The translations under genes were made by a program, and so were the position numbers. From Leucoraja ocellata (Eukaryota): a DNA stretch of 64,000 bases. Of the stretch, positions 15,201 to 57,406 are shown in pieces; the first letter of the stretch is position 1; each line of letters begins with the position of its first letter. The notes under the pieces were generated by a model. That model had not been told where the DNA came from and ran no database searches. It saw only the letters and a program-made list of their open reading frames with translations. The stretch covers positions 248,001-312,000 of the forward strand of contig JAWMAR010001015.1 of the NCBI GenBank assembly GCA_036785375.1, written 5' to 3'.

Positions 15201-15204
15201 GAAT

Positions 15205-15918: not shown

Positions 15919-15928
15919 GAACATGACC

Positions 15929-18122: not shown

Positions 18123-18133
18123 TTTATTTTATT
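18123..18133 (-). promoter_or_regulatory. Candidate poly(A) signal, distal copy
   Basis: AATAAAATAAA on the minus strand, paralogous to 51651-51661. Confidence 0.45.
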
Positions 18134-18514
18134 TATGCATCTAATTTCAAATGAAAACATGCAGTTCTGCAGAAAAATTAAAAAATAAGCTGCAGACAAT
18201 GAGTTAAACAACATCTGCTTTACAAAACCTGATTGAGCAAGTCCCCAAGCATCGCCCCCCCCCCCCCCCCCCCACCCATCCAGCACATTGTTTCCTGTTC
18301 CTTCTCCCCTCCCCATGCCCCCTTCTTGCACCTAGGGCATCAGCGCATCCCTCCCCCTCCCACACTCACCTCTTCTCCTTCACTCATCACATTCCCATCT
18401 GCTCCCCTTACCCAAACATTAATCCTGCCTTCCTCTCCACTCCTGAATGCCACCCACTCCAGTGTCTTATACCCTGACATTTTCCCACTGTCATGTCCTA
18501 TCCTGTCCTTCACA

Positions 18515-18690
18515 CCCCCCCCACCCCCCCCCCCACCCCCCCCACCCCTCCCACCCACTCCCACCCCCCACCCACATCGCCCCACCCCCACCCCACCCGC
18601 CCACCCCCACCCCCCCCCGCCACTCGCCCCAATCCCACCCCCCCGCCCCACTTCGCCCCACCCCCCGCCCCACTCGCCCCACCCCCCTCA
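18515..18690. repeat. C-rich tract (G-rich on the Ig sense strand) in the putative 3' UTR, copy A
   Basis: Runs of C4-C11 separated by a/g, including ccccaccccccgcccactcg units. Confidence 0.85.
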
Positions 18691-18875
18691 ATCCCAACCA
18701 GTTTCTTCCCCAGCATCTCCAGTGCATTTCCAAGTTTATCTCCTGTAATGAGCGTTTGCAGAGCAGTAGCCTCAGATTGCCGAGTGAGTGAGTGAAAAGA
18801 CAAGGAGACTCCATTTTTCAACGTCAACAGCTGCATGGCGATCTCTTGAGTGAAGGTGGCGTGTGTGTCGGCTGG

Positions 18876-18887
18876 TCATTGTTGCAC
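18876..18887 (-). CDS. Candidate TM2 exon (VQQ*), duplicated distal copy
   Basis: Acceptor and GTG CAA CAA TGA are identical to 52334-52345. Confidence 0.55.
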   Translation of the reverse strand: MQQ

Positions 18888-19208
18888 CTGTAATATACAC
18901 AGGAAAGTTAGATATTGTGTGTGGCAAGGTGCAGCACAGATGGTGACCTGCAGGGACAGGCAAACTAAATAACAGACAGTCTGTCCTTAACCTCAGAGAT
19001 GGACCCTCATGGACAGGGGGTCTGCAACATTTCTAGGACCCTCGAGGATTGGTGGTTTGTGCATGTGTGTAGGAGATGGACCCTCATGGACAGGTGGTCT
19101 TTCATTAGTGGCCCAGGTCAACTCTAAGGGATACACAGTCTGAATGCCAGTTGTGGGCTGAAGAGAGGTCCCGTACTTGGGCACAGTTTCCAGATACGGA
19201 GTACCCTG

Positions 19209-19521
19209 TTAGTTGTAGTTTAGTGATACAGCATCAAACAAGCCCTTCAGCCCAGGGAGACTGCGCCGACCAGCGATCCCTGCACATTAACACTACCCTA
19301 CACACACTATGGACAATTTTTTTACATTTACATCAAGCCAATTAACCTACAAACCTGTACATCTTTGGAGTTTGGGAGGAAACCGAAGATGTCGGAGAAT
19401 ACCTACGCATGTCACGGGGAGAACGTACAAACTCTGTACAGACAGCACCCGTAGTCAGGATGGAACCCAGATCTCTGGCACGGTAAGGCAGCAGCTCTAT
19501 CGCTGAGCCACCGTGATGCCC
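19209..19521 (-). mobile_element. V-SINE (HE1-like) in the TM1-TM2 intron, copy A
   Basis: Reverse complement shows ggtggctcagcgatagagctgctgcc, a B box and the V-domain. Confidence 0.82.
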
Positions 19522-19679
19522 AACATTTGATATGAATACAACGTTTGTTTGATTTCCTTGTTTGAGCCCAGGGTCATTGCCCCAAATACCTAACATTCTA
19601 TGAATGTTTGCTGTATCAAGGCCCAGAGGACAGGAGTAAAGTGGAAAGGTTCAAAGACCAGGGGGATGTGAAGGGTCCC

Positions 19680-20977
19680 ATAGAAACATAGAAAATAGGT
19701 GCAGGAGGAGGCCATTCGGCCCTTCAAGCCAGCACCGCCATTCATTGTGATCATGGTTGATCACCCCCAATTAATAACCCGTGCCTGCCTTCCCCCCATA
19801 TCCCTTGATTCCACCAGCCCCTAGAGCCCTATCTAACTCTCTCTTAAATCCACCCAGTGATTTGGCCTCCTCTGTGGTAGGGACTTCCACAAATTCACAA
19901 CTCACTGGGTGAAAGAGTTTTTTCTCACCTCAGTTATGGCCTCCCCATTATGGCCTCCCCATTATTCTCAGACTGAGGCCCTTGGGTCTGGACTCGCCAA
20001 TATTGGGAACATTTTTTCCTGCATCTAGCTTGTCCAGTCCTTTTATAATTTTATATGTTTCTATAAGATCTCCCCCTCATCGTTCTAAACACCAGCGTCC
20101 TTCCTCAAATTAGGAGACTAAAGCAGTATACAATACTCCAGATGTGGTCTTACCAGAGCCCTATACAACTGCAGAAGAACCTCTCTACTCCTATACTGAA
20201 ATCCTCTTGTTATGAAGGCCAACATTCCATTAGCTTTCTTCACGGCCTGCTGTACCTGCCTGCCACCTTTCAGTGACTGGTGTACAAGGACACCCAGGTC
20301 TCGCTGTACATCCCCCTCACCTAACCCCATTGAGATAATAATCTGTCCCCTTGTTTTTGCCACCAAAGTGGATAACCTCACATTTATCTATATTATACTG
20401 CATCTGCCACGCATCTGCCCACTCACTCAACCTGTCCAGGTTACCCTGCAACCTCCTAAGATCCTCTTCACAGTTCACACTGCCACCCAGCTTAGTGTCA
20501 TCCGCAAACTTGGTAGTGTTGCTCCTAATTCCCTCTTCCAAATCATTAATATATATGGTAAACAGTTGTGGCCCCAACACCGAGCTTTGCGGCACTCCAC
20601 TCGCCACTGCCTGCCATTCTGAAAAGGACCCGTTCTTTCCTACTCTTTGCTTCCGGTCTGCCAACCAGTTTTCTATCCATGTCAACCCCCAATACCATGT
20701 GCTCTAATTTTAGTCCTTTAGTACCTTTAGCCCACTGTACCCTTGGCTCACTGTACCTTTACTAAAGCACTGTACCTTTAGCCCACTGTACCCTTGGCTC
20801 ACTGTACCTTTACTAAAACACTGTACATTTCTCACCTTTCACATCGATCCCTATTACTCTCTTATCCCTTTGTGAGCTTTCTTTCCCTTTAATTCTGGGG
20901 TCATTAACTATCCCTTTACTCCCTTTCCCTTTAACTCCGGCCCTGACTATCCCATTTGACACCCCCCTCCCCTTATT
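19680..20977 (-). mobile_element. CR1 LINE in the TM1-TM2 intron, copy A (internally deleted)
   Basis: RT C-terminal motifs and a CTATGTTT tail. It lacks the part corresponding to ~54187-56985, and filler sequence sits at 20716-20826. Confidence 0.85.
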
Positions 20978-21107
20978 GTCCCAGACTGCATCATCTGTTG
21001 GCCGTGGTGTGGTGAGGATTGATGAGTCAGAGAACACAGTGTAGTGAGGAATGGACGGTCACAGTGTGGGGGGGTCACAAAGTATCTTTGTCGTTGGTCA
21101 TCGTTAC

Positions 21108-21247
21108 CTTGACAACAGTGACGAAGGTACTGTAGAGGAAACTGATAATGAACAGGATGGCTAAGGCAGCAACTGTGAGCACATTGTCATCTCCATCCAA
21201 GTCCCCTGACTCCACCTTCCCTTCCTCACCTGTCAATTCTGTGCCGG
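21108..21247 (-). CDS. IgW: Ig transmembrane exon TM1, duplicated distal copy (usage unknown)
   Basis: Same 140-nt exon with identical splice sites and 5 substitutions. Encodes GTELTGEEGKVESGDLDGDDNVLTVAALAILFIISFLYSTFVTVVK with no stop or frameshift. Confidence 0.85.
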
Positions 21248-21774
21248 CTTCAGGACAAATGAGAAGGTGAGACAGTTAGTTTGCCGCCGATGTTTTGTGA
21301 AGATCAACAACGTGTGAATAAAATGAAGACAACAGGAGGACAGGAAGACAGGAGGCTTGGGTCAGTTCCACCGTTCAATGATATGTGGAGATCTATCACC
21401 AGCTCCACTGAGCTGACTTTCCCCCACATCCATTAACATCGCGTATAGTCAAACTCTGCAATCTCAGATATAAAATCACCTTCACACCTGGAACCAAATA
21501 CTAATTGTGGAAGGCAATTCCAAACTTCCATGAACCTCTGATAGACACAAAAAGCTGGAGTAACTCAGTTGCACAGGCAGTATCTCTGGAGAGAAGGAAT
21601 GGGTGAGGTTTCACGTCGAGACCCTTCTTCAGATGCCATGACCCACTTCATGTAGCATGGCTACCTCTAACCTTTAGACCCTGTACTTTGTATAAAGTTG
21701 GATTTCCATAAATCAGGGAGATCATTTGTAACCCAGGGAGCACTGTATACAACTAAAAAATAATTCCTCCTCAT

Positions 21775-22070
21775 CTAGTTAGTTTAGTTTATTGTCACGT
21801 GTACCAAGGTACAGTGAAATGCTTTTGTTGCATGCTAACCATTCAGCGGAAAGGCAAAACATGATTACAAATGAGTCATTCACAGTGTATACATACATGA
21901 TAAGGGATTAATGTTTAGTACAAGGTAAAACCAGTAAAGTCCAGTCAAAGATAGTCCGAGGGTCTCCAGTGAGGGAGATAGTAGTTCAGGACCACTCTCT
22001 GGATGTGGTGGGATGATTCAGTTGCCTGATAACAGCTGGGAAGAAACTGTCCCTGAATGTGGAGGTGTGT
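21775..22070 (-). mobile_element. Rex1/Babar-like 3' fragment with (CTAAA)n tail; paralog ~57933-58230
   Basis: TSTFRDSFFPAVIRQLN followed by a 3' UTR with aataaa and a pentamer tail. Confidence 0.7.
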
Positions 22071-22249
22071 AAATAGATCTTCACAGGATAATCTATTCTG
22101 TTAGCTCCCATTAACTTTGTGAAAACATCAAACAAAACTTCCTTTAGCCTTCTAAATGACAACTTGTTCAGCATCATGAAAGTAAGCATGCAGGTAGGTA
22201 CAGCAGGTACAAATCTCACCACCATATTATAATTATCGAGCTGTATTTG

Positions 22250-23775
22250 AGGGGAGGGAAGAGAGGGAGGGATGGAGATATGAGGGGAGGAAAGAGAAGG
22301 GGTTATGAGGGGATAGGAGAGGGGAGGAGATGAGTGGAGAGGTGAGGAGGGAGGAGGAGTAGTGGGGAGGAGGAGAGGAGGGGAGAGGAGAGGGGTAGAG
22401 AGGAGAGGAGGGGAGGCGGGGAGAGGAGGGGACAGACAAGGTAGAGAAGAGCGGAGGGGAGGGTTAAGGCTAGTGGAGAAGAGAGGAGAGGGAGTGGAGG
22501 AGAGGAGAGATGAGAGAAGAAAGGTAGTGAAGAGGAAGGCGGGGAGCGTGAAAGGAGGAGGAGAGGGGACAGGAGGAGAGGAGAGGACAAAAGACAATAG
22601 ACAATAGGAGTAGGGGGGGAGAGGAGGGAGAAAGGAGGGAGGGGAGAGGGAAGGAGAGGGGATGTGGGGAGAGCGGAAGAAAGGAGAGAACAAAGGGGAG
22701 GAGAGGGGAGAAGGGGGGAGGAGGGGAGGGAGTGTACAGGAGAGAAGAGAGGAGAGGGGAGAAACGAGAGGGGAGGGGAGGACAGAAGTAGGAAGTAGAT
22801 GAGGAGAGGAGGGGAGAGGTGAGAAGAGGGGAGTAGAGGAAATGACGGGAGAGGAGATGAGGGAAGAGGGGGAGGGATGAGGGGAGAGGAGCTTTGAGGG
22901 GAGAGGTAAGGAAGGGAGGGGGAGGGAATGAGAGTAGAAAACCTCTCAACACAATATCACAATGATCTTTTGTGATGAATGGGAAGAGGGGAGGGGAGGA
23001 GAAGAGAGGGGATGGGATTGTAGATGGGAGGATAGAGGAAGAAAAGGAGATGAGGGTAGTAGATGTGGTGAGGAGGGAAATGGGGCGGAGAGGAGAGGAG
23101 GGGGGAAGGGAGGGGAGGAGATGGGAGGAGGGTAGGTGCGAAAGGGGAAAGAGATGGGAGAGGAGGGTGAGGGCAGGGGAGGTGAGGAGGGAGGGGTGAT
23201 GGTAGAAGAGAGGGTGGGTGGGGAGGGAGGCGAGGGGAGGGGAGAGGGTGGGAGGGAGAGGAGAGGGACAGGTGCAGAGGGAGGGAGGGGAGGTGAGAGG
23301 GAGAGGGAGCAGGGCAGGATTATCACTCCCTCCTCTACGTTTCAATTTTCTTTTGCGCTGATCTGGATTAAACACATCCTGATCTGATCACAAAATCATT
23401 TGGCGTCCAGGAAATCAACGTCTCTGACGCACATCCTCCATTTTATTCCCAGCTAGAGGGGGGGGGAGATAGAGAGGGGAGAGAGAGATGAGGGAGAGAG
23501 GAGGGAGAGAGGAGGAGTGAGACAGGGGCGCAAGAGGAGAGAAAGAGGATGGTGAGAGAGGAAGAGGGTAGAGAGAGGGGCAGANNNNNNNNNNNNNNNN
23601 NNNNNNNNNNNNNNNNNNNNNNNNNNNNNNNNNNNNNNNNNNNNNNNNNNNNNNNNNNNNNNNNNNNNNNNNNNNNNNNNNNNNNNNNNNNNNNNNNNNN
23701 NNNNNNNNNNNNNNNNNNNNNNNNNNNNNNNNNNNNNNNGGGGGCAAGAGAGAGGGGGGTGAGAAAGATGGGGGA
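22250..23775. repeat. Polypurine tract, copy B (contains N gap 23585-23739)
   Basis: Paralogous to 5660-7015. Confidence 0.88.
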
Positions 23776-24544
23776 GAGAGTTGTCTGGACTCGAGGGGTC
23801 TGAGCTACAGGGAGAGGTTGGGACAGTAAGCGACTCTATTCCTTGGAGGACAGGAGCATGAGGGGTGATCTTATGGAGGTGTACAATCATGAGGGGAATA
23901 GATCAGGCAGACGCACAGAATCTCTTGCCCAGAGCTGGGGAATGGAGAAACAGAGGGCACGGGTTTAAGGTGGGAGAGGAGGTGAAAGATGAAAGATTTA
24001 ATAGGAACCTGAGGGGTAACTTTTCCACACAGAGAGTGCTGGGTGCATGGAACGAGCTGCCGGAGGATGTAATTGAGGCAGGGAGTATCACATTTGGACA
24101 GGTACATGGACAGGGCAGGTTTGGAGGGATATGGACCAAATGCAGGCAGGTGGTACTAGTGTAGATGTGACATGTTGGCCGATGTGGGCAAGTTGGGCCA
24201 AAGGGCCTGTTTCCACGCTGTATTATTCCAGGGAAGAAACTGTCCCTGAATCTGGAGATGTGCGTTTTAACACTTTTGTACCTCTTGCCCGATGGGAGAC
24301 AGGACAAGAGGGAGTGACTGGGCTGAGACTGGTCCTTGATTATGCTGCTGGTTTTGCCGAGGCAGTGTGAGGTGTAGATGGAGTTGATGGAAGTGAGGTT
24401 GGTTTGTGTTGGATGGTCGGTACTGCATCCACAACTCTGTGATTTCTTGCGGCTCTTTGGATGGAACTGTTCCCAAACCGTGCTGTGATCCATCCCGATA
24501 AGATGCATTCCACGGCGCATCTGTAGAAGTTGGTGAGAGCTGTA

Positions 24545-24848
24545 GGGACAGCATGACGGCGCAGCGGTAGAGTTACTGCCTCTCAGCACATGAGACCTGG
24601 GTTTGATCCTGACTACAGGTGCTGTCTGTACGGAGTTTGCATGTTCTTCCCGTGACCTGCGTGAATTTTCTCCGGGTGCTCCGGAACCCTCCCACACTCC
24701 AAAGACGTTAATTGGCTTCGGTAAAATTAGTAAATTGTCCCTAGTGTGTGTAGAATAGTGTTGGTGTTAGTCGCTGTTCAATGCGGACTCAGTGGGACGA
24801 AGGGCCTGTTTCTGTGCTGTGCTGTGCTCTAAACTAAACTAAATTAAA
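24545..24848 (+). mobile_element. V-SINE (HE1-like), paralog of 7782-8085
   Basis: Near-identical sequence in duplication copy B. Confidence 0.85.
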
Positions 24849-26323
24849 CCTCCTCTGGACCCTCTCCAATGCCGGCACATCCTTCCTCAGATATAGGGCC
24901 AAAACTGCTCACAATACTCCAAATGCAGGTTCTCCATTCACTAACACAACCCTCCGGATATATAAAGATATTCTTACTTGATAAGAATTTTTATCTCACG
25001 GAATATAAAACAAAATTAAAATTAAAAAAGCAGACCCTTAATTTTGTGGACAACACTCCCACCCAGTGGTGTAACGCCGCAATGACAGCTCCAGTTATTT
25101 TGTTGTCACCTTGATATTCGCTCGACATCTGTATTTGGAAATCAGGACATTCTATGAATAAAATAGGTTTTAAAATTTAAAGCTAGTTTTTTTTTTGTGG
25201 ATAAGCAGGCGGTGCTTTGCTGTGATGACGAACCTTTATGAATTGTGGACCCAGAGATGACTTTATGAGTTTATTAAGTTCTAGGAGTGGATTCTTAATT
25301 AGCGCGGGTGTCAGGGGTTATGGGACGAAGGCATGAGAATGGGGTTGAGAGGGAAAGAGACATCAGCCATGGTTTAAATGGCGGAGTACTCGATGGTCTT
25401 AATGGACTAATTTTGCTCCTATCTCTAATGGACATGAATTAAAGTTATGTGATAAAATACAGGGACCTGTCATAGTGGTGGGAGTGTTGACCGCAAAATA
25501 ATGAAGGAGGGGCAACTTTATATAGTCAATGGAGGGCACCATTAAATAGTTATTGGAGGGCACTATCAAATAGGAGCGAGAGAGTGAGAGAGAGAGACGG
25601 GGGGGGGGGGGGGGAGTGAGGGAGGGAGGGAGGGATGGGGCGAGAAAAGAGGAGGAAGAGATCTCTCTCCCCTCAGTCACTCCTCTTTTTCCGGCCCTTA
25701 TTCACTCCTCTACTTCACTACATTCACTCCCTTCCTCCACTCATTCACTCCATCCCCACCCTCTCTGAGATTTTCTCCCTCCCTAATCATTCTCTCCCTC
25801 ATTCATTCCCTCCCTTCTCTCATTCACACCTACCACCTCCCACCTCCCTCTCCCCCCTTATTCTCTCCCTCGCTCGCTCAGTCACACACTTTCTTTCACC
25901 CTTCAGCCCACATTCCCCTCCCTCTATCCCATCTTCCCCAACACCATTCCATCTCCCTCTCTTGCTCTCCTTCTCTCTCTTTTTTTTTGTTTTCAAAAAC
26001 TTTATTCGACGACTTCCGGTTGCGCCATGCTAGGCTAGCAGTCGCAACTTTTAGCTCCGCTCCTGTGGAAACGCGATTTTTTGCGTTAAAATTGTGTCTG
26101 GAAGTCGGGACCAATTCAAAAAACTCACCAGAGCCCTGGGATGTCGCGCTGATGACGTCATCAGTAAGCGCTGCAATTTAAAACGGAGGGAAAAGCAGTT
26201 TAAATGAAAAAAACGTCTCCAGCTCAGAGCCCTCAGAGAAACATCTCAAAACTGCTGAAAACACAGAAAAGTGAAGAACAGACCTCTGAAGTGGATTCTG
26301 GAATGGCTACAAGATCCAAGACT

Positions 26324-27706
26324 GAGATAGCTACTAAGGAGAAAAATTAAATGGAGGAGACACTGCCCCAGGGAGCAGTGGAAGCAGAAACTTTAAATAT
26401 ATTTAAGACTAAAATAGATGGTTTTTTAGCTGCCAAGGGGATAAGGGGCTACGGGGAGAGGGCAGGGATATGGACCTAGGTATGGTTAGTATAGTAAGAC
26501 CTGAGTGATCTCCTGGACAAGTGTCGATCGCCTGGATTGGGGTCGGAGAGGAATTTCCCGGATTTTTTTTCCCGAATTGGACCTGGGTTTTTATCCGTTT
26601 TTTTGCCTCCCCCAGGAGATCACGAGGTTCTTGGGGTGGAGAGGGGTGATAGCGGTATAAAGGGGAAGGTAGTGTCTTGTGTTCTGTGTCTTGTGTCCAC
26701 TGTTTGTGGGTAAGTGTGTCTGTTTAGTGTTCAGCCATGAGCGAATGGCGGTGCGGACTCGACGGACCTGGTGGTCTACTCTCGCACCTACTTTCTATGT
26801 TTTCTATGTTTTCTAAAGAGCTCGGTAAGAGATTTGAGAAAGGATATTGAGGCTGGAAACTCAAAAATGTTGGAAAGTATGGAAAATATGAATGTTAAAT
26901 CAATGGAAAATATGGCAAACATTAATGCTGGTAATCAAAAAATTATTGACTGCATTGGTATTATACAAAAACGAATTGAGGATGTGCATGAAGAGCTAGT
27001 GGTGAGAATTAAGAAAGGCGAAGAAGAAACTGAGAAGAAGTTTGAGTCTGTGAATGTAATTGTTTCTTCACATGGAACCGAAATAAAAGACATGGAAACA
27101 GTGGTTGAACAAATGGCTGAAGATATGCAGGGAATGAAGCTAGAAGTGGACAGCCTCAAGAGTCAACTGGCAAAATTTTCAGATAAATGCCTTGATCTTG
27201 AAGCTTGCTCACGACGCCAAAATCTACGAATACTGGGAGTAACAGAAGGGGCAGAAGGGGACAACGCTCGTGGGTTCACTGCCAACCTAATCAAACAGGT
27301 ACTCAATCTACCTGTGGAACCAGAAATTGAAGTGGCACATCGAATACCAAGATTTAAGCCAAGAGCACAAGCAGATCCAGCCCACCCACGACAGATCATA
27401 GTCAAACTTCGGGACATTTCAGCACTTGAGGACCTGATGAAAAAAATCAAATATGGAGTGAAGATGACCTTTGGACAAGACACTATCAAACTCCTGTGGG
27501 ACTATCCCTTTGAGATTGTTCAAAAGAGAAGAAAGTTTGAACAGACAAGACAGATTCTCTATGGAGTCAAAGATGTTAGATGTGGCGTTTTTTATCCGGC
27601 CAGAATGCGCATTACTTACAAGGGAAAAAAGAAAACTTTCACTAACTCGGACGCATCTTATAAATGTGCCAAAGAGATTGTCGCAAAGGCAGAAACAGAA
27701 GATTAA
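26324..27706 (+). pseudogene. L1 ORF1p (coiled coil plus RRM/CTD), disrupted near the N-terminus
   Basis: DLEACSRRQNLRILGVTEGAEG, IEVAHRI, PRQIIVKL, DYPFEIVQKRRKF and YPARMRI. Has an early stop and a CR1 insertion. Confidence 0.85.
26363..26813 (+). mobile_element. CR1 3' end nested in L1 ORF1
   Basis: Nearly identical to ~42756-43205, with a (ctatgttt)n tail. Confidence 0.9.
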
Positions 27707-27825
27707 CCACACCAGCGGGAGTATATGAAGATTTTCGTGCCTTTTATTATCCCACAGAGAACACCCGAAGACAAAGGAAGAAATAACACTCTCTAAAAGT
27801 TTAAAATGGAACCTAATTTCCACGT

Positions 27826-33400: not shown

Positions 33401-33875
33401 TTACTAGAATGTTGCCTGGGTTTCAGCAACTAAGTTACAGAGAAAGGTTGAACAAGTTAGGGCTTTATTCTTTGGAGCGCAGAAGGTTAAGGGGGGACTT
33501 GATAGAGGTTTTTAAAATGATGAGAGGGATAGACAGAGTTGACGTGGAAAAGCTTTTCCCACTGAGAGTAGGGAAGTTTCAAACAAGGGGACATGACATG
33601 AGAATTAAGGGACTGAAGTTTAGGGGTAACATGAGGGGGAACTTCTTTACTCAGAGAGTGGTGGCTGTGTGGAATGAGCTTCCAGTGAAGGTGGTGGAGG
33701 CAGGCTCGTTTTTATCATTTAAAAATAAATTGGATAGTTATATGGATGGGAAGGGAATGGAGGGTTATGGTCTGAGCGCAGGTATATGGGACTAGGGGAG
33801 ATTATGTGTTCGGCATGGACTAGAAGGGTTGAGATGGCCTGTTTCCGTGCTGTAATTGTTATATGGTTATATGGT
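33401..33875 (+). mobile_element. CR1 3' fragment nested in DIRS gag
   Basis: ATATGGTT-tail family; TSD tacat (33396-33400, 33876-33880). Confidence 0.9.
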
Positions 33876-36800: not shown

Positions 36801-37075
36801 TACAGCAGGATGGTCGAGGAAATCAACATTCAGAACATTTTATAATAAGCCGTTGATAAAACCTGATTCATTTGCAGCAAAGATATTAGAAGCTGCAAAT
36901 ATTTAATTTAAGCCCGGGGGAGCAATTTATTTTTGTTATTGTTAATAAATACCTTTTTGTTTTTCTTGAAAAACAGATTAATTGGTTAAATTACGATAAC
37001 ACTTCCTCCCTCAAGAACTTCGGCAGTGAGTGAATAAAACTGTTTGAAATCACAGAGCTTTGAAATCTTCACGAA

Positions 37076-37178
37076 GTCACTCACGTGACTCCGAAGTAAA
37101 ATAGTAAGATTAAACGAGAACTTACCAGTTTGAAGTTTGATCTGTATTTTATGAGGAGTTACGATGAGGGATTACGTG
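37076..37178. other. DIRS internal complementary region (ICR)
   Basis: The first 27 nt are the reverse complement of the left terminus (32454-32480). The remainder is the reverse complement of the right terminal extension (~37326-37401). Confidence 0.92.
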
Positions 37179-46423: not shown

Positions 46424-49262
46424 ACAGTCATCACAGGCATATGATACAACAGATCAAAACATAATCAGAAATTACACTATATCAAATAATCATTATAGTA
46501 CAAATGTGCATTCATTGTTTACAATACTCTCAACCCCACGCGGTGACCAGCGCCCACGGAATACCTCCAGAGTACCCGTGGACACCGCGTGTTCCCTCTC
46601 CAGGGACACACGTGCACGGACATAAGCCCAAAAGAGGGGCAGGCATCCGACTCTAGCCTGACCCTCGACCGCCCGCTGCCAATGGCCATCTTGGCCAGGC
46701 CCAGGAACAAACCGACAGGGAAGTCCCACCCCCCCCACTTGGCTCTCCCCACACCCTGCCTTGTGTCCAAACACAAGAATCGTAGGACTAAAATGTAACC
46801 AGTGCTTGAGGAACAACCCTTTCATATATATAATAATAGGAACAAACTCTCTTCCTGGCTGCAGAAAATACAGGTGGTAGACGAGCCCATGAACCGACTC
46901 TAAAGTTTATTACACGCCACCGCTCTATGCAGCACTCTCCACCCCAGGTCCCCAATGTAAAGGGGGACAACTCCCTTATAGATGGACCCCCACTGGCGAC
47001 CTTTCCCACCTTTGGGTGGGAACACAGACTGCCATGGTGTGTCAGGGCGGGAGATGAAGGCAAGGAGGTGCAGAAAGTACAGGAACATTCTGTACAGTGA
47101 GCGTCTCTTCGCATCATGAAACGGCACGCTGGTCATCTCAGAGAGGCGGCTCAGGTTGTGTGGAGCCGGTTCCCGAGAAATATCCCAGAGTCGAGGCCCG
47201 ATGAGCAGATCTGATGATGCGGGTGAAAGCTCATTCAGAACCACTCTAGGCACGCGCCTCTCCTCAACACTCGCCATGACAGAGTGAGGACCGGCCACTC
47301 CCGCAGCCGCAACATCCCCTTCCCCTCGTGGAGTGACACGCTGGCTGAAAACAGCCAAATTCCTCACTCTTAGCACATCCCAGTAGAAAACAGGCAAGCC
47401 CCTTAGGGCGGGTCGACTGATGCCCGCCACCGGGAGCCGTGAGACCCCCTTAGGCAACGACCCCGACGGAAACAATACGTGGCCAAAGCGTGCCATCTGG
47501 GGGGGTTCTCTACATACATATACCTCCGCAGAGTCCTGAGATGGAGAGCCGCCACCTGGGTACGCACGCACACCAAGGACTGGCCGCCCTCATCTAACGG
47601 GAGACTCAGAACCGCTGCGGAAACCCAGTGCTTCCTATTTCGCCAAAATAAATCCACCAGTTTCTTCTGTAAAGTAGTTACAAATATGGAAGGCGGGACA
47701 AGAGTAGCCAGCCGGTACCATAACATGGAGGCCACCAGCTGGTTTATGACCAACACCCTCCCCTGAAAGAATAGAACTCCAAGCAGGCCTGACCAGCGCC
47801 CCAGCCTGGCAACCACTTTCGTCTCCAACTCCTGCCAATTTGCCGGACAAGCATCCTCAGTGGGACTCAGGTACACTCCCAGATAGAGGAGGTGCGTGGT
47901 GCTCCACGCAAACATTGCCATCTCCTCTGGCAGGGAGTCCACCTGCCACTGACCCACTAAAAGTCCAGAGCACTTGCTCCAATTAATCCTGGCAGAAATG
48001 CAGCCGAGAAAATCTTCTGGCAATCACGCATCCTCCGCAGGTCACCAGGATCGGTGAACATAAGGAGTACATCATCGGCATACGCCGAAAGAACCACCTC
48101 CACCCCCGGGCCCGGTAGGGCCAGACCTGTCAACCTCCTCCGAAGAAGACACAGGAATGGCTCCACACAGACCGATTACAACTGACCCAACATGGGGCAC
48201 CCCTGACGGACCCCCCTCCCAAAATGAAAGGGAGCCAACAACACACCATTCACCTTCACAAGGCACTCCACTGCAGCATACAAAAGCCAGACCCCGGGCC
48301 ACAAAATGCGGTCCAAATGCAAACGCTTGCAACATCCCGAAGAGGTATTCATGCTCTACCATATCAAAAGCTTTCTCCTGATCAAGAGACAGAAAAGCAG
48401 CTGACTGACCAGTACCCTGGGCTAGATGAATCAGGTCCCTAACCAGGTGGATGTTATCCTGAATGGACTGACCTGGGACTGTGTAGGACTGGTCAGGGTG
48501 AATCAGTTGAGACAGCACGGAGCCCATGCAATTCGCCATCGCCCGTGCAAAAACTTTGTACTCTGTACATAGGAGAGAGACCGGGCGCCAGTACTTCACC
48601 AAGCGGAGTTCCCCCTTCTTGGGCAGCAAGACAACAACTGCTCTACGCCACGAGAGGGGCATCTCCCCGGACACCAGGCTCTCCCCCAGAACCAACATGT
48701 AGTCACCCGCATGATATCCCAGAAAGTTATAACATACTTTACCGTCAACCCATCCAGCCCGGGGGACTTACCCCTCCTGAGCTGATGCAATGCACGAGTC
48801 AACTCCTCCAAAGATAAGGAGCCATCAAGAAGATCGGCCACCTCCCTTTCTACAGTTGGTAGACCCTCCCACAGGTCCTGCTGAGCCTCCCCGCTGAATC
48901 CACCTGCGGAGAACAGGGACCCGTAAAAGGACCTGACCAGGGCACTAATCCTCTCCGGATCAGTGACAGAGGAGCCATCGTCTGCGAGAATCTCTACGAC
49001 CTGTTTGCGGGCTCCCCGCCCTTTCTCCAGAGAGAAAAAGAAAGGTGAAGCTCAGTTCAGATCGTGCAGCATCTGGACCCGCAACCTCACGTAAACGCCT
49101 CGGGACCGCTCAAGTTGCAGGTTCCTCAAGGCTTCCTTCTTCTCCTGAATTCCGCATTCACAGGAGTCATCACTAAACCGACCCAGGCGAGACTCTGCGT
49201 CCAGTAGCTCCCTCTCAAGCCTCTCGACCGCAGAGTCCTGCCGTCCGGTCGACCCCCACGTG
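46424..49262 (-). mobile_element. Tx1-clade LINE fragment, copy B (extreme 3' end at ~25980-26010)
   Basis: KSPGLDGL, LLPKKGELRLVKYWRPVSLLCTEYK, LSLDQEKAFD and AYADDV, with multiple frameshifts. Confidence 0.85.
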
Positions 49263-49281
49263 TATTCCTTATGTGTATTCC

Positions 49282-50005
49282 TTACCTGAAATTGGAGAGT
49301 TCAATGTTCATACCGCTATTTCAGGTAGTCCTTGCTTTCTCACTCTTTCCCCTCCCCTTCCCAGCTCTCCCACAGCCCACAACCCACTGTCCCCGTCTCT
49401 TCCTTTCTTCTCCCCCCCCCCCCCACACATCAGTCTGAGGAAGGGTCTCGACCTGAAACATCACCTATTCCTTCGCTCCGTAGATGCTGCCTCACCCACT
49501 GAGTTTCTCCAGCATTTTGTCTACCATTCGTGTCTAAACCCATGACTATAAGCTTCAGGGAAGAGCATCTGCTGACTTTACCTGGTCTTGTTATGTGACT
49601 CCAGGCCCCCAGTTATGTAGCCGACCCGTATCAGCTCTGAAATGGCCCTGGGAAACATCCAGTTCAAAGGCGGTTGTGGACGGGAAATAAATGTTAGTTC
49701 ACTTCACTTGCACCTCCTCCAACCTCATCTACTGTATCCACTGTTCAAGATGTGGACTCTTACACATCTGCGAGACCAAACGTAGACTGGGCGATCGTTT
49801 CGCTGAACACCTTCGCTCAGTCCCCCTGGACCAACCTGATCTCCCGGTTGCCAAACACTTTAATTCCCCATCCCATTCCCACACTGACCTGTCTGTCCTG
49901 GACCTCCTCCACTGTCAGAGTGAGATGAAACACAAATTGGAGGAACAGCATCTCATATTTCACTTGGACAGCTTACAACCCAGCACAAGGAATATTGATT
50001 TCATG
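49282..50005 (+). mobile_element. Penelope-like fragments, paralog in copy B
   Basis: Near-identical to 14485-15200. Confidence 0.8.
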
Positions 50006-51650
50006 AATTGTTTCCATGTCCCAGCTACACTAGTCCCACCTGCCTGTGTTTGGCCCACATCCTTCCAACCCTGTCCTATCCATGTACCTGTCCAACTGTT
50101 TCTTAAATATTCAGATAGTCCCAGCCTCAACTACCTCCTCCGGCAGTTCATTCCATACACCCACCACCCTGTTTGGAAAAGTTTACCTCTCAGATTCCTA
50201 TTCAATCTTTTCCCCTACACCTTGAACCTATGTCTTCTGGTCCTCGATTCCCTTACTCTGGGCAAAAGACTCTATGCATCTACCCAATCTATTCCTCTCA
50301 TGATTTTGTACACCTCTATAAGGTCACCATTCAACCTCCTGCGCTCCAAGGATTAGAGTCCCAGCCTACGTAACCTCTCCCTATAGCCGACCCTGATATC
50401 TTGGCAACATCCTCATAAATCTTCTCTGTACCCTTTCCAGCTTGTTGACATCTTCCCAATAACATTGTGCCCAGAACTGAACACAATACTCTAAATGTGG
50501 TCCCATCAATGACATATAATAGACAATAAACAATAGGTGTAGGAATAGGCCATTCGGCCCTTCGAGTCAGCACCGCCATTCAATGCGATCATGGCTGATC
50601 ATCCACAATCAGTAGCCCGTTCCTGCCTCCTCCCCATATCCCCTGACTCCGCCATCTTTAAGAGCTCTCTCTTAAAAATATCTAGAGAACCTGCCTCCAC
50701 CCCCCTCTGAGGCAGAGAATTCGAACATGACCTCTCAACTTCTATACTCAATACACTGACTGATGAATCCAATGTGTCAAAAGTATTTTTGACCACCCGA
50801 ACTATCTGCGACTACACCTTCAAGGAACCATGCACCTGTAATCCTAGATCCCTCTGCTCTACAACACTCCCCGGAGGCCTACCATTGTCTGGTCATGCCC
50901 CAATGTCTTTTCCCCGAGGTGTGTTCCTCCAATACCCGGCCCCATGGGCTTTCCTGCAATGTTTGGCCCTCTGACCTATGCCATTTGGATCAGGTGCTGG
51001 AGTTGACTCTTCAGTATCAGTTGTATTCTTTTCGGAACCTGTTCATGTACTCCTCTCCTGATGCGTTTTAGCCCAGTATCTGGTGTATTTGGTGCACTCA
51101 TAGAGTCATAGATTAATATAGTGCGGAAACAGGCCCTTCGGCCCAACATGCCCACACCGGCCAACAATGTCCCAACTACCCTAGTTCCACTTGCCTGCAC
51201 TTGGTCCATATCCCTCCAAACCTGCCCTACCCATGTACCTGTCCAACTGTTTCTTAAACCATGGACTACCTCCTCTAGCAGTTTGTTCCATACACCCACC
51301 AACCTCTGTGTGAAAATGTTACCCCTTGATTCCTTTTAAATCTTTTCCCCTTCACCTTGAACCCATGTCCACTGGTCCTCGATTCCCCTACTCTGGGTAA
51401 AAGACTCTGTACACCCACCCGATCTATTCCTCTTATGATTTTGTACATCTCTATAAGATCACCCCTCATCCTTGTACGCTCCATAGAATAAAGACCCACC
51501 CTGCTCAACCTCTTCCTGTAGCTCACACCCTCAAGTCCTGGCAACATCCTGGCAACATCCTCGTAAAAGTCCTGGCAACATCCTCAGCTGAAGTCCCTAA
51601 AGTGATGAGTAAAATGATGATCAACTCCAAACATTTCATGTTTTTGTTAT

Positions 51651-51661
51651 TTTATTTTATT
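51651..51661 (-). promoter_or_regulatory. Candidate poly(A) signal of the membrane-form mRNA, proximal copy
   Basis: Overlapping AATAAAATAAA on the minus strand ~680 nt after the TM2 stop, at the edge of non-repeat sequence. Confidence 0.5.
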
Positions 51662-52048
51662 TATGCATCTAATTTCAAATGAAAACATACAGTTCAGCAG
51701 AAAAATTAAAAAATAAGCTGCAGTCAATGAGTTAAACAACATCTACTTTACAAAACCTGATTGAGCAAGTCCCCAAGCATTGCCCCCCCCCCCCCTCCCC
51801 TCCACCACATTGCTTCCTGTTCCTTCTCCCCTCCCCATGCCCCCTTCTTGCACCTAGGGCATCAGCGCATCCCTCCCCCTCCCACACTCCCCTCTTCTCC
51901 TTCACTCATCACATTCCCATCTGCTCCCCTTTCCCAAACATTAATCCTGCCTTCCTCTCCCACTCCTGAATGCCATCCACTCCATGTGTCTTATACCCTG
52001 ACATTTCCTCAGTGTCATGTCCTATCCTGTCCTTCCCACCCCACCCCC

Positions 52049-52158
52049 CCACCCCCCGCCCACTCGCCCCACCCCCCGCCCACTCGCCCCACCCCCCGCC
52101 CACTCGCCCCACCCCCCGCCCACTCGCCCTACCCCCCGCCCACTAGCCCCACCCCCCC
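52049..52158. repeat. 20-bp minisatellite in the putative 3' UTR, copy B
   Basis: About 5 copies of ccccaccccccgcccactcg. Confidence 0.88.
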
Positions 52159-52333
52159 TGTTTCTTCCCCAGCATCCCCAGTGCATTTCCAAGTTTATCT
52201 CCTGTAATGAGCGTTTGCAGAGCAGTAGCCTCAGATTGCCGAGTGAGTGAGTGAAAGACAAGGAGACTCCATTTGTCAACGTCAACAGCTGCATGGTGAT
52301 CTCTTGAGTGAAGGTGGCGTGTGTGTCGGCTGG

Positions 52334-52345
52334 TCATTGTTGCAC
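52334..52345 (-). CDS. Candidate cytoplasmic-tail exon TM2 (VQQ*), proximal copy
   Basis: Reads ctaac (branch-like) tttcctgtgtatattacag|GTG CAA CAA TGA in non-repeat sequence downstream of TM1. Phase 0 gives a KVQQ tail, comparable to the KVK tail of IgM. Confidence 0.65.
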   Translation of the reverse strand: MQQ

Positions 52346-52666
52346 CTGTAATATACACAGGAAAGTTAGATATTGTGTGTGACAAGGTGCAGCACAGATG
52401 GTGACCTGCAGGGACAGGCAAACTAAATAACAGACAGTCTGTCCTTAACCTCAGAGATGGACCCTCATGGACAGGGGGTCTGCAACATTTCTAGGACCCT
52501 CGAGGATTGGTGGTCTGTGCATGTGTGTAGGAGATGGACCCTCATGGACAGGTGGTCTTTCATTAGTGGCCCAGGTCAACTCTAAGGGATACACAGTCTG
52601 AATACCAGTTGTGGGCTGAAGAGAGGTCCCGTACTTGGGCTCAGTTTCCAGATACGGAGTACCCTG

Positions 52667-52979
52667 TTAGTTGTAGTTCAGTGATACAGCATCAAACAAG
52701 CCCTTCAGCCCAGGGAGACTGCGCCGACCAGCGATCCCTGCACATTAACACTACCCTACACACACTAGGGACAATATTTTTACATTTACATCAAGCCAAT
52801 TAACCTACAAACCTGTACATCTTTGGAGTTTGGGAGGAAACCGAAGATGTTGGAGAAAACATACGCATGTCACGGGGAGAACGTACAAACTCCGTACAGA
52901 CTGCACCCGTAGTCAGGATGGAACCCAGATCTCTGGCACTGTAAGGCAGCAGCTCTATCGCTGTGCCACCGTGATGCCC
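52667..52979 (-). mobile_element. V-SINE (HE1-like) in the TM1-TM2 intron, copy B
   Basis: Paralog of 19209-19521. Confidence 0.82.
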
Positions 52980-55200
52980 AACATTTGATATGAATACAAC
53001 GTTTGTTTGATTTCCTTGTTTGAGCCCAGGGTCATTGCCCCAAATACCTAACGTTCTATGAATGTTTGCTGTTTCAAGGCCCAGAGGACAGGAGTAAAGT
53101 GGAAAGGTTCAAAGACCAGGGGGATGTGAAGGGTCCCATAGAAACATAGAAAATAGGTGCAGGAGGAGGCGATTCGGCCCTTCGAGCCAGCACCTCCATT
53201 CATTGTGATCATGGTTGATCACCCCCGATTAATAACCCGTGCCTGCCTTCCCCCCATATCCCTTGATTCCACCAGCCCCTAGAGCCCTATCTAACTCTCT
53301 CTTAAATCCACCCAGTGATTTGGCCTCCTCTGTGGTAGGGACTTGCACAAATTCACAACTCACTGGGTGAAAGAGTTTATTCTCACCTCAGTTATGGCCT
53401 CCCCATTATGGCCTCCCCATTATTCTCAGACTGAGGCCCTTGGGTCTGGACTCGCCCAACATTGGGAACATTTTTGCCTGCATCTAGCTTGTCCAGTCCT
53501 TTTATAATTTTATATGTTTCTATAAGATCTCCCCCTCATCCTTCTAAACACCAGCGTCCTTCCTCAAATTAGGAGACCAAAGCAGTATACAATACTCCAG
53601 ATGTGGTCTCACCAGAGCCCTATACAACTGCAGAAGAGCCTCTCTACTCCTATACTGAAATCCTATTGTTATGAAGGCCAACATTCCATTAGCATTCTTC
53701 ACGGCCTGCTGTACCTGCCCGCCAATTTTCAGTGACTGGTGTACAAGGACACCCAGGTCTCGCTGTACCTCCCCCTTGCCTAACCTAACCCCATTGAGAT
53801 AATAATCTGCCCCCTTGTTTTTGCCGCCAAAGTGGATAACCTCACATTTATCTATATTATACTGCATCTGCCACGCATCTGCCCACTCACTCAACCTGTC
53901 CAGGTTACCCTGCAACCTCCTAACATCCTCTTCACAGTTCACACTGCCACCCAGCTTTGTGTCATCCGCAAACTTGCTAGTGTTGCTCCTAATTCCCTCT
54001 TGCAAATCATTAATATATATGGTAAACAGTTGCGGCCCCAACACCGAGCCTTGCGGCACTCCACTCGCCACTGACTGCCATTCTGAAAAGGACCCGTTCT
54101 TTCCTACTCTTTGCTTCCGGTCTGCCAACCAATTTTCTATTCATGTCAACACCCTACCCCCCAATACCATGTGCTCTAATTTTAGTCACCAGTCTCCCGT
54201 GCGGGACCTTATCAAAGGCTTTCTGAAAGTCTAGGTACACTACCTCCACTGGGACCCCTTCATCCATTTTACTTGTCACATCCTCAAAAAATTCCAGAAG
54301 ATTAGTCAAACATGATTTTCCTTTCATAAATCCATGCTGACTTGGACTAATCCTTTTACTGCTATCTAAATGCCCCATTATTTACTCTTTAATAATAGAC
54401 TCCAGCATCTTTCCCATCACCGAAGTCAGGCTAACTGGTCTGTAATTCCCCGTTTTCTCTCTCGCTCCTTTCTTGAAAAGTGGGATAACATTAGCTATCC
54501 TCCAATCCACAGGAACTGATCCTGAATCTATTGAACATTGGAAAATGATCACCAATGCATCCACTATTTCTAGAACCACCTCCCTGGGATGCAGACCATC
54601 AGGCCCAGGGGATTTATCATCCTTTAGTCCCATTAGCCTACCCAATACTATTTCTCACCTAATGAAAATGTCTTTCATTTCCTCTGCCCCGTTAGATCCT
54701 CTGTCTTCCATTACTTCTGGGAGATTGTATGTGTCTTCCTTAGTGAAGACAGATCCGAAGTACTTGTTCAACTCTTCTGCCATTTCCTTGTTTCCCATAA
54801 TAATTTCACCCATGTCTGCCTTCAAGGGACCCACATTTGTCTTTGCTACTCTTTTTCCCTTAACATATCAAATAAGCTTTTACTGTCCTTCTTTATATTC
54901 CTGGCCAGCTTCCCCTCGTACTTCATCTTTTCAGCATGTATTGTCCGTTTTGTTTCTTTCTGTTGTCCTATGAAAGTTTCCCAATCCTCTAGCTTCTGGC
55001 TACTCTTTGCTGTGTTATACATATTTTATTTTAGTTTTATTCTATCCCTAACTTCTCTTGTCAGCCACGGTTGCCTCCTACTCCCCTTAGAATCTTTCTT
55101 CCTTTTTGGAATGAAATGATCCTGCATCTTCCGGATTATGCCCAGAAATTCCTGCCATTGCTGTTCCACCGTCATTCCTGCTAGGATCCCTTTCCAGTCT

Positions 55201-55325
55201 GAAGAAGGGTTTCCACCCGAAACGTCGCCTATTTCCTTCGCTCCATAGATGCTGCTGCACCCGCTGAGTTTCTCCAGCATTTTTGTGTACCTTCGGTCTT
55301 CCAGCATCTGCAGTTCCTTCTTGAA
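55201..55325 (+). mobile_element. 125-nt Penelope pLTR-derived short insertion with a minimal hammerhead-like core
   Basis: 13-bp TSD ccctttccagtct (55188-55200, 55326-55338). Related to ~14628-14720 and, inverted, to ~21545-21633 and ~57703-57792. Confidence 0.72.
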
Positions 55326-55343
55326 CCCTTTCCAGTCTACCTA

Positions 55344-56248
55344 ATTCAATAATTAAGTTTGCTGATGACACTGTGGTGGTGGGCCTGATCTCAGACAACG
55401 ATGAGAAGGCCTACCGGGAGGAGGTGGCTGATCTAGCACTCTGGTGCCAGGATAACAGCCTCCTCTTGAACATCAAAAAAACAAAGGAGCTGATCATGGA
55501 CTTTAGGAGGGCACATCATCCGAGGACGTACACTCCATTGAGGATAAATGGGGATCCTGTGGATAGGGTGAACTGTTTTAAGTATCTGGGAGTCCACATC
55601 ACTGAGGATATGACATGGGCATCACACGCCTCAGCACTCGTGAGTAAGGCAAGGCAGCGCCTTTACCACCTCAGGCAATTGAGGAAATTCAGAGTGTCTC
55701 CGAGGATCCTCCAGTGCTTCTACGCAGCGGCGGTGGAAAGCATCTTGTCCGGGAACATTACCATCTGGTTTGGGAATTGCTCTGCCAAGGACAAGAAGGC
55801 TCTGCAGAGAGTAGTGCGTTCGGCCGAACGCACTATGGGAACTTCACTCACCCCCCTGCAGGAACTATACAACAGGAGGTGCAACTCCAGAGCAAATAAA
55901 ATCATGGGAGACCCCTTCCACCCCTGCAACGGACTGTTCCAGCTGCTACGGTCAGGCAAACGCCTCCGTTGCCATGCGGTGAGAACGGAGAGGTTGAGAA
56001 GGAGTTTCTTCCCAGAGGCAATTCGGACTGTAAATGCCTATCTCACCAGGGACTAACTCTACTAAACGTTTTTCCTTCCATTATTTATAATGTAAAAGAA
56101 TATGTGTGTTATGATTGTGTTTATAATTTGTTTGGTTGTTTTGTTGTTTGTCTTTTGCACAAAAGTCCGCGAGCATTGCCACTTTCATTTCACTGCACAT
56201 CTCGTATGTGTATGTGACAAATAAACTTGACTTGACTTGACTTGACTT
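55344..56248 (+). mobile_element. Rex1/Babar 3' fragment nested in the intronic CR1
   Basis: Same family as 27826-29214 (near-identical protein), with an (ACTTG)n tail. Confidence 0.9.
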
Positions 56249-57266
56249 GGCCAGCTCCTCTCTGATGCCTTCATAGTCCCCTTTGTTCAACTACATCACT
56301 GACACTTCCGATTTAACCTTCACCTTCTCAAATTGCAGATTAAAACGAATCATATTATGATCACTACCTCCAAGCGGTTCCTTTACCTCTCGTTCTCTTA
56401 TCAAATCTGGTTCATTAGACAACACTAAATCCAGAATTGCCTTTTCTCTGGTCGGCTTGATTAGAAGCTGCTCTAAGAATACAGTCGGAGGCATTCTACA
56501 AACTCTCTTTCTTGGGGTCCTGAACCAAGCTGATTTTCCCAGTCCACCTGCATATTGAAATCCCCCATCACCACAGTGGCATTACCTTTGTTACATGCCA
56601 GTTTTAACTCCTGCTGCAACTTACACCCTACATCCGGGCCACTATTTGGGGGTCTGTAGATAACACCAATTAGGGTCTTCTTGCCTTTGTAATTCCTCAA
56701 CTCAATCCACAGTGACTCTACCTCTTCAGTCCCTATGTCTTCCCTCACAAGGGACTGAATTCCCTCCCTCACCAGCAGAGCTACCCCCCCCCTCCTCTGC
56801 CCACCTGCCTGACCTTTCTATAGGCTGTATAACCCTGAATATTAAGTTCCCAGGCCTGATCCTCCTGCAGCCACGTCTCAGTAATCCCCACCATGTCATA
56901 TCTACCAACCTCTAACTGAGCTTCAAGCTCATCTACTTTACTTCTTGTACTTCGCACATTCATGTACAATACTTTTAATTCCTTACACATCTCACCTTTC
57001 ACATCGATCCCTATTACTCTCCTATCCCTTTGTGAGCTTTCTTTCCCTTTAATTCTGGGGTCATTAACTATCCCTTTACTCCCTTTCCCTTTAACTCTGG
57101 CCCTGACTATCCCATTTGACACCCCCGCCCCTTATTGTCCCAGACTGCATCATCTGTTGGCCGTGGTGTGGTGAGGATTGAAGAGTCAGAGAACACAGTG
57201 TAGTGAGGAATGGACGGTCACAGTGTGGGGGGGTCACAAAGTATCTTTGTCGTTGGTCATCGTTAC

Positions 57267-57406
57267 CTTGACAACAGTGACGAAGGTACTGTAGAGGAAA
57301 CTGATAACGAACAAGATGGCGAAGGCAGCAACTGTGAGCATATTGTCATCTCCATCCAAGTCCCCTGGCTCCACCTTCCCTTCCTCACCTGTCAATTCTG
57401 TGCCGG
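57267..57406 (-). CDS. IgW: Ig transmembrane exon TM1, proximal copy
   Basis: Not in the ORF track; translated by hand. 140-nt exon with acceptor ctcaccttctcatttgtcctgaag| and donor AAG|gtaacg, phase 1 in and phase 0 out. Encodes GTELTGEEGKVEPGDLDGDDNMLTVAAFAILFVISFLYSTFVTVVK: an acidic spacer plus the CART motif FxxLFxxSxxYSTxVT. Confidence 0.92.

Follow-up and report, generated by a model that had tools for sequence, protein, structure and literature searches.

In the elasmobranch IgW membrane form, represented by P0053 and by the four-C form P0039, C3- and C4-type exons are spliced to TM1 and TM2, and the skate locus described here has the same kind of exons in the same order. Zhang 2013 and Rumfelt 2004 are reportedly the main papers on IgW splice forms, and they may describe TM exon layouts. 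Membrane exons that lie downstream in an IgH locus with no constant exons of their own have been described in rabbit and killifish. The rabbit delta TM1 and TM2 exons are orphans that gave no transcripts by 3' RACE, and splicing of delta TM onto upstream transcripts was looked for by RACE and not found (PMC5568218); in killifish, an orphaned IGHZ-TM1 is on record (PMC7287348).

The window, a 64-kb stretch of skate DNA, differs from the known IgW membrane form in that two TM cassettes follow one C4 exon and the distal cassette carries Leu at TM position 8 (Leu8). The features are collected in Table 1. The original prediction for this DNA was one set of Ig constant exons followed by two intact membrane-anchor cassettes. 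Both TM1-TM2-poly(A) cassettes are indeed intact, whereas the constant set consists of the last two exons only.

Table 1. Features of the IgW 3' end and of the duplicated segment, with positions in the window
Feature	Position	Strand	Details
IgW C3-type constant exon	59733..60035	-	303 nt, phase 1; Pfam C1-set
IgW C4-type constant exon, final C exon ahead of the membrane exons	58999..59316	-	318 nt; Pfam C1-set, E 5e-21
Proximal TM1, Phe at TM position 8, putative working anchor	57267..57406	-	140 nt; 1,592 nt from C4
Proximal TM2 (VQQ, stop), 3' UTR, doubled AATAAA	51651..52345	-	AATAAA at 51661/51656
Distal TM1, Leu at TM position 8, Ser in spacer	21108..21247	-	140 nt; open frame, intact splice sites
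Distal TM2 (VQQ, stop), 3' UTR, doubled AATAAA	18123..18887	-	AATAAA at 18133/18128
Duplication copy A (distal)	5620..22207		16,588 nt, ~10,960 nt common with copy B; self-BLAST
Duplication copy B (proximal)	22209..58366		36,158 nt; self-BLAST
Duplication joint	22207..22209		one inserted T at 22208, no microhomology, no N
LINE insertion in copy A only, 4.2 kb	8967..13182	+	RVT_1; 16-nt target-site duplication, A-rich tail
LINE fragment in copy A only, 1.3 kb	15929..17199	-	RVT_1; 9-nt target-site duplication
Nested retroelement stack in copy B only, 20.4 kb	26010..46428		RVT_1, endonuclease and tyrosine-recombinase matches; 14-nt target-site duplication
109-nt filler in copy A, opposite 2.8 kb of LINE sequence in copy B (54187-56984)	20715..20824		sequence comparison of the copies

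All four exons (C3-type, C4-type and both TM1) have AG/GT ends and a frame without stop. The C3-type exon is 91% identical to the Rhinoraja model P0023, and the C4-type exon is 89% identical to P0023 and 62% identical to the four-C TM form P0039. An IgNAR identity, with its three-C membrane form, was considered on the grounds that the top PDB matches of the C3-type exon are the IgNAR structures 4Q9B and 2MKL; such matches are expected because the last four C domains of IgW and IgNAR are homologous, as stated in the available text of PMC4279169. This identity was ruled out by sequence identity, which is only 43-49% to IgNAR (the same range holds for the C4-type exon) versus 60-89% to IgW models, and by C-domain trees, in which the C3- and C4-type exons grouped with IgW and fell outside the IgNAR clade at 100/100 support (14 rows in each tree, 3 of them IgNAR, with IgM rows left out). 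By identity and tree placement, the gene is assigned to IgW.

A tblastn search with 52 proteins found no V, D, J, C1, C2, secretory or further Ig exon in the window, indicating that the remainder of the IgW gene is located outside the window. The next exon after C4 is TM1, with no C5, C6 or secretory exon between them. A deletion of C5, C6 and the secretory exon is not claimed; the sawfish model P0002 has the same adjacency, its C3-C4 pairs standing directly before TM and after its secretory exon, and the upstream part of the skate gene is outside the window.

The TM1-TM2 pair of the window matches the known IgW membrane tail. The proximal TM1 has 79% identity across 43 aa with P0053, the curated transmembrane form of horn shark IgW, which has the same F12, S15, Y18-S19 and V22 motif and the same VQQ tail; protein database searches returned no skate IgW TM protein. 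As predicted, the distal cassette preserves the TM1 frame, both splice sites, TM2 and the poly(A) signal, and it has no C exons of its own upstream. The TM1 acceptors of the two copies are identical over their final 36 nt, and the donors are identical too. The proximal copy retains an undamaged poly(A) signal, in a context that matches the distal one, and 19 more AATAAA motifs lie on the sense strand between the two signals. The introns from C4 to TM1, predicted at 1.6 and 37.7 kb, measure 1,592 nt for the proximal and 37,751 nt for the distal copy. Splicing of one TM1 to the other would read PAQN and then stop, which makes the two homologous TM1 exons mutually exclusive by frame; both have usable splice sites.

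The two copies lie head-to-tail, meet at one joint and have since gained insertions of their own, which is the pattern of a tandem segmental duplication. The duplicated segment holds TM1, TM2 and the poly(A) signal and spans no constant exon, in agreement with the claim that the duplication took only the membrane tail. The right end of copy B falls inside a LINE fragment that runs unbroken past 58366, where positions 58349-58424 are 88% identical to LINE sequence at 20188-20263. Upstream of TM1, the two copies form direct repeats in which runs of 170 and 169 nt match perfectly. The retroelement stack of copy B makes up over half of the distance between C4 and the distal TM1. The filler in copy A is likely a deletion joint, and the very high contig depth over 20754-20807 indicates that it is a genome-wide repeat. 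A different history, in which a whole cluster was duplicated and a deletion across the boundary followed, would yield the same structure.

An assembly artefact, in which two divergent haplotypes or paralogous clusters were placed in series, might also produce such an arrangement. Consistent with this, none of the contigs listed for three DNA runs bridges 22207/22209, their alignments ending at 22207; the IgW flanks are collapsed high-depth repeats that are difficult to assemble, and a run of 155 N (23585-23739) lies 1.4 kb from the joint. However, the joint is base-exact and free of N, with one inserted base, and were the N run a gap, the joint and copy A would still share one contiguous stretch. 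The four N runs each measure 154-174 nt, and two of them are within purine-rich low-complexity DNA. The DNA runs compared match neither window copy exactly, and the joint may be absent from them. Furthermore, the copies differ by 2.2% and by three insertions of 1.3-20.4 kb flanked by target-site duplications, which is much for alleles, and both share 7 TM1 letters, at 21117, 21123, 21207, 21214, 21225, 21228 and 21237 in the distal exon, that are missing from all three outside contigs, indicating that they are sister copies and not two random clusters. We therefore regard an artefact as quite unlikely.

The background divergence of the copies is 154/7,025 nt (2.2%), and TM1 has 5 differences in 140 nt (3.6%; expected 3.1, P=0.20), which shows that TM1 is conserved no better than intron DNA. 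The five differences are those described in the original prediction (P/S, M/V, F/L, V/I and one silent change). In the 3' UTR, letters particular to the distal copy stand at 18700, 18718, 18817 and 18839. Four of the five are replacements, compared with a neutral expectation of 3.7, and with five changes selection in either direction could hardly be detected. In the absence of selection, a cassette would have remained intact with a probability of 0.63-0.79 under three assumed indel rates, so the intactness of the distal cassette at this divergence is no more than chance gives; too little change would have accumulated to break so small a target. The TM1 block holds 29 differences, of which contigs of related animals allowed 13 to be polarised; 7 of these match the distal and 6 the proximal copy, indicating that both copies drifted about equally. 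Four of the five TM1 differences are clustered within 34 nt, but a gene conversion tract is not needed to account for them, since such a clump appeared in 47% of block simulations. The caveats attached to the two-anchor proposal, namely neutral decay and a remnant of a second cluster, fit these data better than the proposal itself.

In the residue numbering of PMC11300204, the distal TM1 has Y18-S19, S15, F12, L11 and V22 all present, so the YS pair is retained as claimed. The F/L difference was correctly placed at the first of the conserved aromatics in the mIg TM helix, which is position 8 in this numbering, where the proximal TM1 has Phe and the aromatic is absent from the distal TM1. Phe was found at this position in 16/16 database Ig TM rows, several of which are isoforms of one gene and none of which is from skate. 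Full surface expression of mouse mIgM allows no residue but Tyr at position 8 (PMC11300204), and by analogy Leu8 would lower the surface expression of IgW. However, Leu8 also occurs in the deepest TM1 contig of 3/3 DNA runs, suggesting that skate-type IgW may tolerate it, and this makes it harder to argue that the distal anchor is defective.

These DNA runs (n=3) come from related animals, none evidently the window's own. The search for sequencing runs listed no RNA run carrying this DNA, and the best share of words was 0.55. In each, the deepest TM1 contig has the distal letter at 4/5 of the copy-difference sites, including Leu for Phe, and the contigs are nearer to the distal than to the proximal TM1, being 10, 12 and 10 letters off the distal exon with none of these falling on four of the five positions. 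Of its five letters, the distal copy thus shares all but Ser with the TM1 contigs of the 3 DNA runs. The original prediction had treated the five changes as diagnostic of the distal copy and as its decay, and neither view holds: with four distal letters present in related animals, distal transcripts cannot be recognised from the five SNPs, nor is Leu a decay confined to the distal copy. Phe in the proximal copy may be a reversion, or Leu may have come to the distal copy from a paralog. Among the contigs listed, TM1 contig depth is 1,000-1,270 versus 13-61 for seven other contigs, which suggests many IgW TM1 copies per genome, and in related skate-like genomes Leu8 seems to be the most common form of TM1. 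Of the RNA run X22, from an animal not known to carry the joint, about 6% was read, and 6-7 reads covered TM1, all on the gene strand and extending into the upstream intron. Six of 7 have letters at five sites that neither window copy has. Among the best 40 of 81 rows, Pro/Ser is the only copy-specific site of the five; 2/7 reads have the proximal letter there, and the other 5 have the distal or a third letter.

The most likely explanation, in which we have good confidence, is a tandem duplication at the 3' end of the IgW gene that left the distal anchor as an unused, drifting orphan, with membrane IgW predicted to come from the proximal cassette. The duplication would have taken along TM1, TM2 and the poly(A) signal without a constant exon. 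The C4 donor would then encounter an identical proximal acceptor after 1.6 kb, and the transcript would be cleaved at the proximal poly(A) signal, so that only rare read-through would extend to the distal acceptor, 37.7 kb away. The distal cassette would drift unused, its silence being suggested by the sequence.

The gene might instead pick between the Phe8 and Leu8 anchors by alternative last-exon splicing and polyadenylation, giving receptors with a differing surface level or CD79 coupling. Both cassettes are complete, in frame and exclusive by frame, Leu8 is common in related animals, the database models P0009 and P0018 link TM to different C4-type exons of one gene, and IgW is known for many splice forms (PMC4279169, available text). 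However, the distal cassette shows no constraint, no splice-site difference favors it, and the poly(A) signal of the proximal cassette is undamaged. In addition, 37.7 kb of mostly retroelement sequence would have to be crossed, and the many IgW clusters per genome already provide TM variants (PMC4279169, available text). This choice, the central claim of the original prediction, thus appears very unlikely. The distal anchor could also be used only after a DNA deletion, if the copies recombined in B cells or the germ line with the loss of ~36 kb. Recombination would set the distal TM1 straight behind C4; the copies are 98% identical with 960 nt of shared intron upstream of TM1, including the perfect runs noted above, and according to the available text of PMC4279169, sharks show an unconventional inter-cluster switch thought to involve AID-made breaks. 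Against this, the perfect runs are short, no read or contig supports the product, nothing shows breaks aimed at the shared intron, and the product would differ in only a few TM residues, making this route highly improbable. By read-through splicing and copy-to-copy deletion considered jointly, it is unlikely that one IgW gene makes two B-cell receptors differing only in their anchor.

In itself the orphan explanation matters little, adding to the signs of turnover in elasmobranch Ig clusters, and it cautions against inferring use from an open TM exon. Were the distal anchor used, receptor diversification would keep the antibody and swap the signalling anchor, and Leu8 would tune receptor surface level or CD79 coupling; we found no description of anchor-swapping isoforms for Ig genes in searches of the open-access literature. 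The high-depth Leu8 TM1 type, set against Phe in every database row examined, is perhaps the better lead, and it raises the question of whether skate-type IgW receptors are tolerant of Leu or most TM1 copies are dead.

Tandem-duplicated mutually exclusive or alternative last exons likewise consist of homologous tandem exons that permit no in-frame joint splicing; in the available text of PMC8373072 and PMC9741552, such cases are defined by the expression of both isoforms and are described as mostly ancient, whereas the skate pair is known from sequence alone. The rabbit and killifish orphans are old, decayed remnants of a lost isotype, whereas the skate cassette is a recent, 2.2%-diverged and open copy of the gene's own anchor.

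As shown in the table, Ig constant exons are followed by a proximal and a distal membrane-anchor cassette (TM1, TM2 and poly(A) signal), the latter lying in duplication copy A. The original prediction had described this arrangement, with 5 of 140 nt differing between the TM1 copies (P/S, M/V, F/L, V/I and one silent change), and it proved accurate when exon ends, frames and differences were re-derived. Using tblastn with 52 fetched proteins, we found no further Ig exons in the window; the two other matches at E <0.001 came from the non-Ig tail of one model, over the TM2 regions. The intron between C4 and the proximal TM1 is 1,592 nt long and contains no C5, C6 or secretory exon, and the gene's 5' part is outside the window. 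Reading through the C4 donor on the minus strand (58998-58757) gave ∼23 open codons without cysteine, with an AATAAA at 58757; known secretory tails had no match at E <0.001 in this stretch, which could be open by chance.

Exons, poly(A) signals and duplication copies in the window
Feature	Position	Strand	Remarks
Ig C1-set exon (C3-type)	60035-59733	minus	AG/GT ends, open frame
Ig C1-set exon (C4-type)	59316-58999	minus	AG/GT ends, open frame
Proximal TM1	57406-57267	minus	140 nt; AG/GT ends, open frame
Proximal TM2	at 52345	minus	reads VQQ then stop
Proximal doubled AATAAA	51661/51656	minus	
Distal TM1	21247-21108	minus	140 nt; AG/GT ends, open frame
Distal TM2	at 18887	minus	reads VQQ then stop
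Distal doubled AATAAA	18133/18128	minus	
Duplication copy A	5620-22207		
Duplication copy B	22209-58366		

For the C4-type exon, identity was 89% with a Rhinoraja model (P0023), 62% with a four-C membrane form (P0039) and 43-49% with IgNAR rows. Both C exons were placed with IgW and apart from the three IgNAR rows, at 100/100, in each of two 14-row trees, which contained no IgM rows. Over 43 residues, the proximal TM1 had 79% identity with P0053, the curated transmembrane form of horn shark IgW, whose tail ends in VQQ, as does TM2 in the window. These best matches suggest that the gene is IgW of a skate-like animal. The sawfish model P0002 has a C3-C4 pair of the same type directly before its TM, after its secretory exon; thus, the C4-then-TM1 layout need not be the result of a deletion.

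Residues 1004-1734 of P0002 hold two C3-C4 pairs between the secretory exon and TM, and the window C exons are of the same type as these pairs; rays may have C pairs confined to the membrane form, or two clusters may be fused in the P0002 model. Ray and shark IgW models (P0001-P0006 and P0015), some of the multi-pair ones named "titin-like," have up to seven tandem C3-C4 pairs and up to 1,791 aa. All of these are predicted models, and the longest exceed the forms of up to eight C domains described in the available portion of a review. Two stand-alone models of 84-85 aa (P0049 and P0052, one named from sawfish) consist of IgW TM1-TM2 with a filler start; they could represent further isolated TM cassettes or simply annotations that were split.

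Copies A and B have ∼10,960 nt in common and meet at a joint (22207/22209) with one inserted T, without microhomology and without N. Copy B ends on the right inside a LINE fragment that extends beyond 58366; copy A is truncated within this fragment. In background blocks, 154 of 7,025 nt (2.2%) differ between the copies. Three insertions flanked by target-site duplications occur in one copy only: two in copy A (4.2 and 1.3 kb) and one in copy B (20.4 kb); three other length differences show no convincing target-site duplication. The copy-B insertion (26010-46428) is a nested stack of retroelements within one 14-nt target-site duplication and includes a tyrosine-recombinase frame (36265-36903) that we take to be DIRS-like. 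Where copy A lacks 2.8 kb, it has a 109-nt filler (20715-20824) built from a doubled high-copy repeat unit, which resembles a templated insertion at a site of repair.

In all three DNA runs of related animals, the alignment of one of the listed contigs ended at 22207, marking the same place as a break. No piece among those listed for these runs bridged the joint (160,508 more lay outside the listing), and both window copies are distinct in sequence from these runs (best share of words, 0.55). It is unlikely that the duplication is an assembly artefact; it has the look of a real tandem duplication, partial in extent, from which a spare IgW anchor remains. The same structure would arise if a whole cluster had been duplicated and a deletion had then crossed the boundary.

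We estimated how often an unselected cassette would survive, assigning half of the 2.2% divergence to each lineage; stop-creating changes in TM1, changes at six splice and six poly(A) bases, and indels over 152 coding nt were treated as disabling. The probability of survival was 0.79, 0.73 and 0.63 at assumed indel rates of 0.0005, 0.001 and 0.002 per site, so the intact distal cassette is unsurprising. TM1 showed 5 differences versus 3.1 expected (P=0.20), and 4 of the 5 are replacements versus 3.7 predicted under neutrality, in agreement with the earlier caveat that a 4:1 ratio of replacement to silent changes is the neutral expectation. In these tests, which have little power, nothing points to constraint.

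One RNA run and three DNA runs of related animals were aligned to 20700-22300. A single contig spanned TM1 in each DNA run, with 10, 12 and 10 other letters, all explained by the listed rows (10/10, 12/12 and 10/10) and none at 21149, 21155, 21162 or 21182. At 4 of the 5 copy-specific sites (Ile, silent, Leu and Val), these contigs have the distal letter; the exception, 21209 (Pro), has the proximal one. Thus, the five SNPs, originally proposed as diagnostic of distal transcripts, are common to paralogous clusters and insufficient alone; judging from the same contigs, Leu in place of Phe is not decay peculiar to the distal copy. Seven TM1 letters common to both window copies were absent from all three contigs, indicating that the window copies are sisters. 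Thirteen of 29 block differences could be polarised, with 7 agreeing with the distal copy and 6 with the proximal; the remaining 16 were in repeats or outside the rows listed. Word depth was 1,002-1,269 for the TM1 contigs versus 13-61 for seven other listed contigs, which suggests many collapsed copies and is not a copy number. In the RNA run (X22), 6-7 reads covered TM1 on the gene's strand and extended into the intron, mostly unlike both window copies. Over 21078-21455, depth stayed the same on into the upstream intron, on the gene's strand; the reads look like unspliced transcripts of other clusters.

Counted from Tyr18, the F/L site corresponds to position 8 of the mIg helix. All 16 database Ig TM rows had Phe there; no skate was represented among these rows, which included an IgNAR, a teleost and five isoforms from a single shark species. 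For 15 of them the row filter admitted only Phe or Leu at position 8 and excluded a single TM-ending row, that of a T-cell receptor chain. According to the available text of a deep mutational scan of mouse mIgM, residues other than Tyr at F8 markedly lower surface expression, with a smaller loss than at F12 (PMC11300204). By analogy, the distal anchor, with Leu8, would be the weaker of the two. Against this, Leu8 was the state of the deepest TM1 contig in 3 of 3 DNA runs (X1, X12 and X4; 21108-21247), and thus skate-type IgW may tolerate it; either this is so or many TM1 copies are dead.

No base differs between the two TM1 acceptors in their last 36 nt or between the two donors, and the proximal poly(A) signal is undamaged. 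A transcript would reach the distal TM1 only by bypassing an equivalent acceptor at 1.6 kb, running past the proximal signal and the 19 further AATAAA hexamers beyond it, and traversing ∼36 kb of mostly retroelement DNA; TM1-to-TM1 splicing is out of frame. With co-transcriptional splicing and cleavage, the proximal cassette should win. For these reasons the distal cassette is probably an orphan, so far undecayed. Its use as a regulated alternative last exon is very unlikely, given the identical acceptors, the intact proximal signal and the lack of any sign of constraint. Upstream of TM1, the two copies match perfectly over stretches of 170 and 169 nt, which could serve a DNA deletion between them, but use of the distal anchor by that route is highly improbable. 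That one IgW gene has two working anchors is, overall, doubtful.

Our search of open-access papers turned up no Ig gene described as having two alternative TM cassettes. As far as the available portions of the reports describe, several C donors share one TM1 in fish (PMC3570791). Orphan TM exons, which the spare distal IgW anchor resembles, have been described in rabbit, with no sign of use by 3' RACE (PMC5568218), and in a killifish (PMC7287348).
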